From the NCBI GenBank assembly GCA_024790105.1, contig GCA_024790105.1_3053.1: a DNA stretch of 64,000 bases. One strand, written 5' to 3'. How positions within the stretch are numbered: the stretch's first letter is position 1; each line of letters opens with the position of its first letter. The translations under genes and the position numbers were made by a program. Of the stretch, positions 41,717 to 43,302 are shown piece after piece. A model generated the notes under the pieces. The model did no database searches and was not told where the DNA came from. It saw only the letters and a list, made by a program, of their open reading frames with translations. This DNA comes from a phage.

Positions 41717-41788
41717 TGGCCCTGGGTGGAATTGAACCACCATCTGGCGATTATGAGTCGCTTGCTTGAACCTTCCAGCTACAGGGCC
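41717..41788 (-). tRNA. tRNA with CAU anticodon (Ile if C34 is lysidinylated, otherwise Met)
   Basis: Manual cloverleaf: acceptor GGCCCTG/CAGGGCC, anticodon loop CTCATAA, T-arm GTGGTTCAATTCCAC. Confidence 0.7.
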
Positions 41789-41794
41789 TTGATA

Positions 41795-41850
41795 TGCTGA
41801 TTGACGGAATCGAACCGCCGACATCCTCATTACAAGTGAGGTGCTCTACC
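41795..41850 (-). pseudogene. tRNA-Thr (UGU) 3' portion; 5' acceptor and D-stem replaced by HNH gene end
   Basis: Anticodon arm CCTCA-CTTGTAA-TGAGG, T-arm and 3' acceptor AATCAGC present; no complementary 5' acceptor strand; stop codon of HNH ORF overlaps D-arm. Confidence 0.5.
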
Positions 41851-42307
41851 ACGCTTCCGTTATTTTGTTTTTATATGCTCTATTCCTTGATTTATACGTA
41901 TCAAGTTGAGAGTCACAATTGGAACAAACAAATCTCAGATTTTCTAATCTATGGTCATTGTTTATTCCATTAATATGATCGAGAATTAAAGGCATTGGTT
42001 TGCCATTCCATACTGCTTCTATTCCACAGATAGAGCACTCATATGGTAATATTTTGTCTTCTATAAGTCTTTTTCTAAGATGGCTTCTGCCGTAAGAAGA
42101 ATTTTCAACCATTACATCACTAAGATTATATCTGTTGGTTTTTGGACCAGTCTTAAGTCCTTTATTCCAGATTTTGCAACCTTTTTGAGCTCCGGCTCCC
42201 TTCCCTCTCACATATTCAGCTTTATTTGGATTAAGTTTGCAATATTTTTCATGCACACTTTTTCCGCCAGCTTGTTTAAATTCTTTATTACAAAATTGAC
42301 AATTCAT
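41846..42307 (-). CDS. HNH homing endonuclease (inserted in tRNA cluster)
   Basis: 153 aa from ATG (MNCQFC); C-terminal HNH motif LDHINGINNDHRLENLRFVCSNCD; ORF track TTG extension rejected. Confidence 0.7.
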   Translation of the reverse strand: MNCQFCNKEFKQAGGKSVHEKYCKLNPNKAEYVRGKGAGAQKGCKIWNKGLKTGPKTNRYNLSDVMVENSSYGRSHLRKRLIEDKILPYECSICGIEAVWNGKPMPLILDHINGINNDHRLENLRFVCSNCDSQLDTYKSRNRAYKNKITEAW

Positions 42308-42323
42308 TATCTTCTCATTTAAT

Positions 42324-42400
42324 TGGGGTGACCGATGGGATTTGAACCTACGACATTCTGCTCCCAAAGCAGACGCTCTACCAAACTGAGCTACACGGAG
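42324..42400 (-). tRNA. tRNA-Pro (UGG)-like; 3' acceptor strand does not pair (possibly defective)
   Basis: Acceptor 5' CTCCGTG, D-arm GCTC/GAGC, anticodon arm TCTGC-TTTGGGA-GCAGA; T-stem has mismatch; 3' strand CGGTCAC not complementary to the 5' acceptor. Confidence 0.5.
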
Positions 42401-42413
42401 TAAATTAAATTTG

Positions 42414-42484
42414 AGCGGATAATGAGAATCGAACTCACATCATCAGATTGGAAGTCTGAGGTAATACCATTATACGATATCCGC
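42414..42484 (-). tRNA. tRNA-Gly (anticodon UCC)
   Basis: Acceptor GCGGATA/TATCCGC, anticodon arm TCAGA-CTTCCAA-TCTGA, T-loop TTCGATT. Confidence 0.8.
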
Positions 42485-42490
42485 AAACTT

Positions 42491-42577
42491 TGGTACGAGA
42501 AGTGGGACTCGAACCCACAAGGAAATCATTCCGCAGCATTTTAAGTGCTGTGCCTTTACCAATTTGACCATTCTCGC
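42491..42577 (-). tRNA. tRNA-Leu (anticodon UAA), long variable arm, CCA encoded
   Basis: Acceptor GCGAGAA/TTCTCGT, anticodon arm CAGCA-CTTAAAA-TGCTG, T-arm GTGGG-TTCGAGT-CCCAC. Confidence 0.75.
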
Positions 42578-42583
42578 GTTATA

Positions 42584-43192
42584 TTATTTATTACGTGAAA
42601 AAGACTGTTCTATCAATTCTGGACACTTTCGTTCTATCCATTTTCTAGCTTTTTGTGGGCTTATACCTATTATTTTAGCAGCTTTACTAACCCATCCAAA
42701 TTTAGAATAATCGATTTTAACTAATTCTTCGTAAATTTCATCAGTTAAAATCTTTTCATTAATATTTACCAGTAAATGATATAATTTGTTATCATTAGCA
42801 ATTTTAATGAATCTTTTATAGTTTCCGCCTTTACTTAAACCTAATGAAGTAATTGCAGATGATATAGTAGCCGAATTTAATAATGCGTTTAAAATTTCTT
42901 CATCACTAACATTATAACGCTTTTTATTATTTTTAATATTTTTACCAGCAAAAGTATCAGTTTGCGAGTGACAGTTTGGACATAATAATCTTAAATTTGA
43001 TTTAAGATGATTTTTGTTATTTCCATCAATATGGTCTAATTGCAGAACAATATGCTTATTTTGCCATTTTGAAATTTTACAAATTGCACACTCATATGGA
43101 AAAATATTTTCTTTTATTATTTTGTCTTTCAGCTTTCCTGTGCTAAAATTTGGGTGTTTTCCTTCAAAAATTTCAGCTAATTTAGTATCCAT
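42584..43192 (-). CDS. HNH homing endonuclease with C-terminal helix-turn-helix-like domain
   Basis: HNH motif LDHIDGNNKNHLKSNLRLLCPNCH; paralogous core to ORF 41846-42307; start set at ATG (ORF track begins at upstream TTG). Confidence 0.7.
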   Translation of the reverse strand: MDTKLAEIFEGKHPNFSTGKLKDKIIKENIFPYECAICKISKWQNKHIVLQLDHIDGNNKNHLKSNLRLLCPNCHSQTDTFAGKNIKNNKKRYNVSDEEILNALLNSATISSAITSLGLSKGGNYKRFIKIANDNKLYHLLVNINEKILTDEIYEELVKIDYSKFGWVSKAAKIIGISPQKARKWIERKCPELIEQSFSRNK

Positions 43193-43302
43193 AATATGAT
43201 TCCCAATTATTAACAAAGGCTCTCAAGCAAGAACCCTTGATGATAGAGGGTATTAATCAGTGCGATATGAGTTAATAATAACAAATAATTCTTAAAGCAT
43301 AT

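Follow-up and report, generated by a model that had tools for sequence, protein, structure and literature searches.

Here, we describe the tRNA operon of a T4-like phage in which two free-standing HNH endonuclease genes stand in the places of tRNA genes. The operon lies in a 64,000-nucleotide (nt) stretch of phage DNA (GenBank assembly GCA_024790105.1, contig GCA_024790105.1_3053.1), which we call the window. When 30-40 kb of the window are compared, Tequatroviruses are the closest phages in GenBank (~95-96% identity), and the sequence identifies the region as the tRNA operon of a member of the genus Tequatrovirus, with all genes on the minus strand. One endonuclease gene, termed HNH1 here, occupies the slot of tRNA-Gln. 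The other, HNH2, occupies the slot of tRNA-Ser and is flanked by fragments of tRNA-Pro and tRNA-Thr. We consider it probable that these are two separate homing endonuclease insertions, and that the second occurred by ectopic, microhomology-mediated homing that deleted tRNA-Ser and truncated tRNA-Pro and tRNA-Thr. The anatomy of the locus and the donor of the HNH2 cassette, taken on their own, are close to certain. The features on which the argument is built are the following.

42584 to 43192, minus strand: HNH1, free-standing HNH endonuclease gene (202 amino acids), Gln slot; PHROG 14736 end to end, E 5e-124
41846 to 42307, minus strand: HNH2, free-standing HNH endonuclease gene (153 amino acids), Ser slot; PHROG 10822, E 9e-32
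43199 to 43205, minus strand: tRNA-Gln remnant, first 7 nt TGGGAAT; alignment with T4 and with the Logan contig L004
42338 to 42400, minus strand: 5' 63 nt of tRNA-Pro(UGG), equal to T4 tRNA-Pro positions 1-63, ending in the T-loop motif GGTTCAAATCC (42348-42338)
42321 to 42337, minus strand: foreign CATCGGTCACC-CCA-ATT, the 3' acceptor strand, CCA end and spacer of a Karamvirus-type tRNA-His by alignment
41843 to 41858, minus strand: foreign GGAAGCGTGGTAGAGC, the first 16 nt of a Karamvirus-type tRNA-Ser(UGA) by alignment
41795 to 41850, minus strand: 3' 56 nt of tRNA-Thr(UGU), positions 18-73, 100% identical to T4 tRNA-Thr 18-73

T4 (NC_000866) carries the order trna.2, Gln, Leu, Gly, Pro, Ser, Thr, Ile, segB, Arg, rnaD, rnaC, and each T4 feature of the tRNA region was compared with the window by BLAST. 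T4 tRNA-Gln found no match in the window, and T4 tRNA-Ser none except an 18-nt T-arm similarity within the Pro remnant. ARAGORN, run on the whole window, returned four complete tRNAs only (Leu-UAA, Gly-UCC, a CAU-anticodon tRNA and Arg-UCU). These are the four that a sequence-only reading of this DNA had folded as intact, and Rfam reports the same four together with two partial tRNA matches. Complete Pro, Ser, Thr or Gln genes that this reading might have missed were sought with both programs and none was found, and T4 does not share the arrangement, since its Gln, Pro, Ser and Thr genes are intact. The phage keeps four of the eight T4-type tRNAs. That we are dealing with replacement rather than simple absence follows from the scars that remain, namely 7 nt of Gln, 63 nt of Pro and 56 nt of Thr. 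Beyond TGGGAAT the homology to Gln-bearing genomes ends, and it starts again at base 1 of tRNA-Leu. HNH1 ends 6 nt before tRNA-Leu; this spacing, and the assignment of the reading frame 43192-42584 to the slot where T4 has tRNA-Gln, had been proposed from the letters alone and both are borne out.

HNH2 (42307-41846) had likewise been placed in the Ser slot between a Pro-like and a Thr-like gene, and the two Rfam partial matches do flank it. One (42395-42333) covers model positions 6-65 with the anticodon UGG, the other (41855-41803) covers model positions 9-63 with the anticodon UGU. The Pro remnant is identical to the tRNA-Pro of the Tequatrovirus T4_ev151 as far as 42338. Its 5' acceptor strand forms 3 of 7 pairs with the 3' strand CGGTCAC, as the claimed acceptor mismatch had it, and CGGTCAC is, by alignment, the acceptor strand of a foreign tRNA-His, which makes the gene a Pro::His chimera. 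The Thr remnant lacks the 5' acceptor strand and the 5' strand of the D-stem, a truncation that had also been recognized. The piece preceding it makes 2 of 7 acceptor pairs and aligns as the 5' end of a foreign tRNA-Ser, giving a Ser::Thr chimera. The TAG stop codon of HNH2 (41848-41846) lies within the motif GGTAGAGC of this second chimera. Neither remnant forms a cloverleaf (folding z of 0.19 for Pro and -0.73 for Thr), compared with -3.8 and -2.8 for the intact Pro and Thr genes of T4_ev151. All elements of the arrangement seen in the sequence-only reading are thereby confirmed. A group I intron within one tRNA gene was considered and rejected, as the flanks belong to two different tRNAs, Pro(UGG) and Thr(UGU), both of which possess an anticodon arm. 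Rfam reported no intron family or ribozyme at E values up to 1, nor at the gathering threshold.

The origin of the HNH2 cassette can be read from its edges. Two Karamvirus phages that infect Enterobacter, EnA02 and KKP_3262, match the stretch 42348-41843 of the window at 98.4% identity, and their HNH2 protein shares 99.3% amino acid identity with that of the window. In EnA02 the HNH2 gene sits between an intact tRNA-His and an intact tRNA-Ser(UGA). In the naive Karamvirus Entb_43 the His and Ser genes are just 4 nt apart (...CATCGGTCACCCCAATT|CGGAAGCGTGG...). The sequence CACCCCAATT of Entb_43 is exactly the one found 5' of HNH2 in the window, and CATCGGTCACC-CCA-ATT (42337-42321) is identical to the tRNA-His end and spacer of this naive phage. 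The junctions were mapped by three-way alignment with the intact Tequatrovirus relative T4_ev151, which has intact Pro, Ser and Thr genes. The window reads Pro up to GGTTCAAATCC, then CATCGGTCACC-CCA-ATT, HNH2, GGAAGCGTGGTAGAGC, and Thr from its own GGTAGAGC. The left junction falls in the 11-nt T-loop motif GGTTCAAATCC, with one mismatch to EnA02. The right junction falls in the 8-nt D-arm motif GGTAGAGC (41850-41843), which forms the last 8 nt of GGAAGCGTGGTAGAGC and is common to tRNA-Thr. Together with HNH2, 17 nt of the donor tRNA-His end and spacer and 16-27 nt of the donor tRNA-Ser were transferred. On either side of the exchange there is a carrier and a relative without the gene: HNH2 is present in EnA02 but missing from Entb_43, and present in the window but missing from T4_ev151.

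On these alignments the HNH2 cassette is a recent import from a Karamvirus-type donor. It occurs in none of the ~530 GenBank records that match its flanks. The direction from Karamvirus to Tequatrovirus is unambiguous because tRNA-His and tRNA-Ser are whole in the Karamviruses and fragments here, and because no tRNA-His was found in the window, in T4 or in T4_ev151. For the same reason a transfer from Tequatrovirus to Karamvirus was rejected. In the Karamviruses the spacer between His and Ser (L093 546-551, L001 2522-2990, L094 543-1218) is empty in Entb_43 and holds HNH2 in EnA02 and KKP_3262. In the Karamvirus EnC15 it holds a SegB-like GIY-YIG gene, and further records annotate a "homing endonuclease" or "GIY-YIG nuclease" there. 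Judged by these records, the spacer is a hot spot of competing endonuclease genes. The ends of the HNH2 reading frames differ slightly between EnA02 and the window. A 1-nt difference in an A-run (window 41862-41872 compared with ~2975 in L001) changes the last HNH2 residues, and the stop codon is a TAA before tRNA-Ser in EnA02 and a TAG within the Ser remnant in the window.

The insertion at tRNA-Gln has a different history. At least 64 of 518 matching GenBank records (~1/8) contain the 751-bp stretch of HNH1 with both of its junctions, at an identity of 98-99.6%, and the HNH1 protein is 98-100% identical in ~64 Tequatrovirus records. Carriers include ACG-C40, Ozark, HY03, slur03 and T4_ev151; the other matching records have tRNA-Gln. 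By its distribution, HNH1 in place of Gln is an older, widespread allele. The two HNH events are independent and of different age, and this refines the sequence-only reading. Close relatives of HNH1 were not found outside Tequatrovirus, where the best full-length match is ~35% identical, and IMG/VR returned no relatives. In layout HNH1 has an N-terminal HNH core followed by a C-terminal region that matches the LuxR-type-motif part of a T5 homolog. This homolog, T5p073, lies in the tRNA region of T5 and carries annotations for HNH and LuxR-type motifs; over 84% of the HNH1 length the two are 35% identical. HNH1 and HNH2 have in common the HNH core only (44% identity over 71 residues), and their domain order is opposite. 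The open reading frame list extends HNH1 to a TTG at 43216 and HNH2 to a TTG at 42367 (173 amino acids), through the Gln and Pro remnants. We rejected these upstream starts, as the homologs begin at the ATGs at 43192 (HNH1) and 42307 (HNH2).

In HNH2, a C2HC zinc finger at the N-terminus is followed by an HNH core with CxxC...CxxC at the C-terminus. The protein keeps all residues that are invariant in 67 homologs (C3, C6, H19, C23, C91, C94, D110, H111, N123, C128 and C131). Among them is the HNH catalytic motif, D110-H111 and N123, framed by the pairs C91/C94 and C128/C131. The beta-beta-alpha-metal fold of the HNH superfamily was looked for in an AlphaFold2 model of HNH2, which is confident with a pLDDT (predicted local distance difference test) of 87. 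Its top Foldseek matches in the PDB are the HNH nucleases McrA, Cap5, Gme HNH, PacI, endo VII and I-HmuI, all weak with E > 0.05. A PDB sequence search gave weak zinc-finger matches only for the HNH2 N-terminus and nothing for HNH1. Pfam HNH (PF01844) scores 20.2 bits on HNH2 and 17.3 bits on HNH1, both below the cut-off of 21.4. Near-miss Pfam HNH scores are usual for such a short domain.

What does the HNH2 family recognize? Loci with HNH2 relatives were taken from IMG/VR and a protein collection and scanned for tRNAs, which gave 26 distinct loci with the closest relatives. In 18 of the 26 the reading frame is followed almost directly, within a few bases, by a tRNA gene. This following gene is tRNA-Ser(UGA) in 17 of the 18, although Ser(UGA) contributes just 19 of all 163 tRNAs there. 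The upstream neighbor is variable (His, Gln, Ile, Glu, Lys, Asn, Ala, Val or Gly). Remoter relatives likewise lie 5' of tRNA genes, in their case Trp, Gln, His, Thr, Pro or Leu. Such an adjacency would fit a free-standing homing endonuclease beside its target. Since close HNH2 relatives nearly always lie directly 5' of tRNA-Ser(UGA), the data suggest this gene as the putative target of the family, and it is this gene that is deleted in the window. The Tequatrovirus tRNA-Ser(UGA) is similar to the Karamvirus gene in its 5' half. In many family members (L010-L037, L090-L092) the reading frame runs into the downstream tRNA-Ser gene before its stop codon is reached, with an overlap of up to 24 nt. 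Their C-terminal residues (for example ...VAESG) are a translated tRNA D-arm, and the tail ...ITEAW* of the window protein is read from the Ser remnant.

The cassette is not confined to the window. Six Logan contigs (L004 to L009), assembled from six sequencing runs, encode the exact 153-amino-acid HNH2 protein, and Pro, Ser and Thr genes are absent on all six. L005 equals the window at 100% over 3,676 nt. L006, L008 and L009 carry HNH1 and 11 further bases of the foreign tRNA-Ser, with the junction in GCACC. HNH1 is missing from L004 and L007, whose tRNA-Gln is intact, and L007 has a T4-type tRNA-Pro allele left of the common junction. In L004 the right junction reads GCAAC in place of GCACC, and its region trna.2-trna.4 (1645-2663) is 85.6% identical to window positions 44224-43199, with a nearly identical cassette. 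Over the six contigs the cassette varies by one synonymous single-nucleotide polymorphism, compared with a flank identity to the window of 85.6% to 100% and two Pro alleles. The 11 nt GCTGGCTTATT of the foreign tRNA-Ser are absent in the window and L005 and kept in L004 and L006-L009. The shorter right junction of the window may have arisen by an 11-nt deletion or else by secondary resolution at the GGTAGAGC repeat.

In sum, the six contigs have one left junction, two right-junction variants (with and without the 11 nt) and at least four flanking haplotypes. This pattern points to a single intergeneric entry, followed by spread by homologous exchange among Tequatroviruses. Exact-string scans with both junctions and the HNH2 leader found nothing in IMG/VR or the JGI metagenomes, and the allele is known only from Logan.

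We propose the following sequence of events. In a first event, HNH1 replaced tRNA-Gln from position 8 to its 3' end. Later, during a mixed infection, a double-strand break would have occurred in or beside the Tequatrovirus tRNA-Ser(UGA); its most likely agent is HNH2 itself, produced by a Karamvirus-like phage in the same cell. The broken ends would then be resected and repaired from the foreign genome that carries HNH2 in its 4-nt His|Ser(UGA) spacer. Because the two genomes have no long homology here, the ends would pair at short tRNA motifs, at GGTTCAAATCC of the Pro/His T-loop on the left and at GCACC/GGTAGAGC of Ser/Thr on the right. Ectopic invasion of this kind has a precedent, as T4 introns are described to enter ectopic sites by illegitimate double-strand-break repair at microhomologies (Parker et al. 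1999, in the account given in PMC2988022). The product has no tRNA-Ser, carries Pro::His and Ser::Thr chimeras unable to form acceptor stems, and is left with four functional tRNAs. Subsequently the cassette moved into other Tequatrovirus backbones by ordinary homologous recombination or homing. The sequence-only reading had also suggested that the replacement was endonuclease-driven. The replacement itself stands by virtue of the tRNA scars. The drive by a nuclease is strongly indicated, rather than demonstrated, by the presence/absence polymorphism, the co-transferred flanks, the occurrence on several haplotypes and the link between the family and tRNA-Ser(UGA).

Several observations weigh against this scenario. 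Cleavage by HNH1 and HNH2 and the target site are predicted, the Pfam HNH scores are below threshold and the Foldseek HNH matches are weak. EnA02 is not the exact donor, as it departs from the window at four leader positions and by a 1-nt indel close to the stop codon. Five of the six Logan contigs have consecutive run numbers, so that they may stem from one study. Furthermore, the left junction lies within the SegB consensus motif GGTTCRANTCC, and another nuclease could have made the cut. This is the chief alternative: the same product and donor would result if SegB, either the resident enzyme (41010-41675) or that of a co-infecting phage, had cut secondary sites at the 3' ends of tRNA-Pro, tRNA-Ser or both, with HNH2 as mere cargo. 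SegB recognizes GGTTCRANTCC and cuts ~15-25 nt downstream, the left junction is the exact end of GGTTCAAATCC in tRNA-Pro, and in vitro SegB cuts the tRNA-Ser of T4 and T2L and the tRNA-Pro of T2L (PMC2330249). In T6, SegB drives rearrangements of the tRNA region (PMC13096335). However, a cut by SegB would explain neither the adjacency of the HNH2 family to tRNA-Ser(UGA) in 17 of 18 loci nor a deletion centered on tRNA-Ser, and SegB activity on the phage's own DNA is held very low (PMC2330249). We therefore regard SegB as an unlikely author of the break and favor HNH2.

The event might also have needed no site-specific break at all. Chance illegitimate recombination or template switching between a Tequatrovirus and a Karamvirus at tRNA motifs, followed by drift or hitch-hiking, would require just the 8-11 nt of identity seen at the junctions. 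T4 replication is recombination-dependent, which counts in favor of such an accident. However, the import consists of almost exactly one homing endonuclease gene with minimal flanks, and one cassette with hardly any internal variation occurs on at least four flanking haplotypes, which fits active spread. An origin by chance alone is in our view quite improbable. An assembly artefact, in which Tequatrovirus and Karamvirus reads of one sample were joined into a chimeric contig, could be suspected because the window equals the contig L005 at 100%, Logan being an automatic SRA assembly, and because the arrangement is absent from GenBank phages, IMG/VR and the JGI metagenomes. Against it, the common strings of 11 and 8 nt are far below the k-mer length of assemblers, both junctions recur in six independent assemblies with differing flanks, and the cassette has its own differences from every available Karamvirus. 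An artefact can hardly be credited. Homing of HNH2 into the Tequatrovirus operon, in the order of events proposed above, remains the account that we prefer.

The remaining features of the operon follow the T4 order.

43303 to 43590, minus strand: trna.2-like open reading frame (95 amino acids), upstream flank of the operon; 96.5% nucleotide identity to T4 trna.2
42491 to 42577, minus strand: tRNA-Leu(UAA), intact; ARAGORN; Rfam 57 bits; 98.9% identical to T4 tRNA-Leu
42413 to 42484, minus strand: tRNA-Gly(UCC), intact; ARAGORN; Rfam 65.8 bits; 100% identical to T4 tRNA-Gly
41717 to 41788, minus strand: CAU-anticodon tRNA, intact; ARAGORN; Rfam 59.9 bits
41010 to 41675, minus strand: segB-type GIY-YIG homing endonuclease gene (221 amino acids); Pfam GIY-YIG 25.7 bits, cut-off 22.6
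40930 to 41006, minus strand: tRNA-Arg(UCU), intact; ARAGORN; Rfam 71.1 bits
40925 to 40809, minus strand: rnaD homolog; 85.6% identity to T4 rnaD
40802 to 40664, minus strand: rnaC homolog; 99.3% identity to T4 rnaC
40613 to 40590, minus strand: predicted terminator-like hairpin that ends the operon

An identity as IPI was rejected for the trna.2-like reading frame in view of its 96.5% nucleotide identity to T4 trna.2; Pfam Phage_T4_Y07B matches the trna.2-like gene on the contigs L004 and L005. The segB gene has the T4 position between the CAU tRNA and tRNA-Arg, and the GIY-YIG domain and the comparison with T4 segB support its orthology. It is a mosaic relative to T4 segB, with 88% identity over the first 287 nt, 97% over the last 186 nt and a middle that is nearly unmatched. 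By BLAST, the CAU tRNA shows no similarity to T4 tRNA-Ile and tRNA-Arg(UCU) none to T4 tRNA-Arg, despite their equal positions. The non-T4 tRNAs beside segB and the mosaic gene itself look like traces of an earlier gene conversion around segB. A promoter scan returned 15 sites compared with 14.1 expected from shuffled sequence, which is the shuffled level. On the plus strand, Rfam gave matches to "Plastid-ycf2" and "psbI-rps4" at 40932-41006 and 41716-41788, opposite the real tRNAs. They lie well below threshold and were rejected as spurious reverse-complement tRNA matches.

The tRNA sets of phages are commonly explained by codon supplementation and, lately, by escape from host defenses that cleave tRNAs. 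The locus described here shows a third and recent force, namely selfish endonuclease genes that overwrite tRNA genes. Pro, Ser and Thr were lost in one event, yet the allele occurs on several genetic backgrounds. In the reading frames of the window the codons of the lost tRNAs account for 39% of Pro (CCA), 29% of Ser (UCA), 30% of Thr (ACA) and 72% of Gln (CAA) codons, and CCA, UCA, ACA and CAA together reach ~74 per 1000 codons. Because these cognate A-ending codons are still frequent, it is plausible that the codon supplementation of the phage is altered, as had been suggested before, and that this is costly in some hosts. According to PMC2330249, phage development does not require the T4 tRNA region, and phage tRNAs can serve as anti-defense factors (PMC13096335). 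Natural phages that differ by the cassette alone would be useful to determine the fitness value of T4-type tRNAs and the resistance to defenses that target tRNAs, and the tRNA-Ser(UGA) gene offers a testable candidate target for an uncharacterized HNH clade. A more general idea, which we put forward tentatively and would not yet bet on, is that HNH2 and its relatives form a clade of homing endonucleases specific for tRNA-Ser(UGA), and that the T-loop and D-arm motifs, conserved in all tRNA genes, serve as portable landing pads between phage genera without any other homology, with erosion of the recipient tRNAs as a side effect. If this were true, homing endonucleases would be a major force on the retention of phage tRNAs, beside codon usage and anti-defense.

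Endonuclease genes of the HNH and GIY-YIG families in phage tRNA clusters are already known (SegB, F-TflI/II/IV), and so is the replacement of tRNAs by homing in the cross of T4 with T2L. T4 SegB is likewise encoded by a free-standing gene in the same tRNA operon and has tRNA genes as targets. It is expressed from within the tRNA precursor transcript (PMC2330249), and its homing replaces non-homologous tRNA genes of the recipient, so that T2L loses Met, Tyr, Asn and Arg (Brok-Volchanskaya et al. 2008, PMC2330249). However, SegB belongs to the GIY-YIG family and its activity is proven, whereas HNH1 and HNH2 are HNH proteins with a predicted activity. SegB homing also takes place between close relatives with long flanking homology, in contrast to the 8-11 nt microhomologies with another genus and the chimeric tRNA scars observed here. 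The F-TflI/II/IV genes of T5, as cited in PMC2330249 from a 2004 study, are HNH-family genes between the tRNA genes of a lytic coliphage and resemble the present case in this respect. Some GenBank records label HNH1 "F-TflIV". Sequence identity to the T5 genes is low, and HNH2 differs in its order of an N-terminal zinc finger and a C-terminal HNH core. T4 MobE, of the Mob class, is a free-standing HNH endonuclease between conserved T-even genes with a patchy occurrence among relatives and a target in the adjacent conserved gene (PMC2790892); a close sequence relationship to it was not seen.

In mechanism, the closest likeness is to the ectopic homing of T4 introns. According to the description in PMC2988022, this needs little or no homology, leaves microhomology junctions and deletes recipient sequence by resection. 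That system was a laboratory one with plasmid donors and an intron endonuclease, whereas the case presented here is natural, runs between genera, concerns a free-standing HNH gene, and its product has spread. Intergeneric ectopic homing via 8-11 nt microhomologies, earlier documented chiefly in laboratory constructs, can here be followed in nature at the resolution of the sequence. To the known systems the window adds an HNH clade that the family comparison suggests to be tied to tRNA-Ser(UGA), and a natural intergeneric, microhomology-mediated invasion with chimeric tRNA scars, in which three tRNAs were lost in one step.

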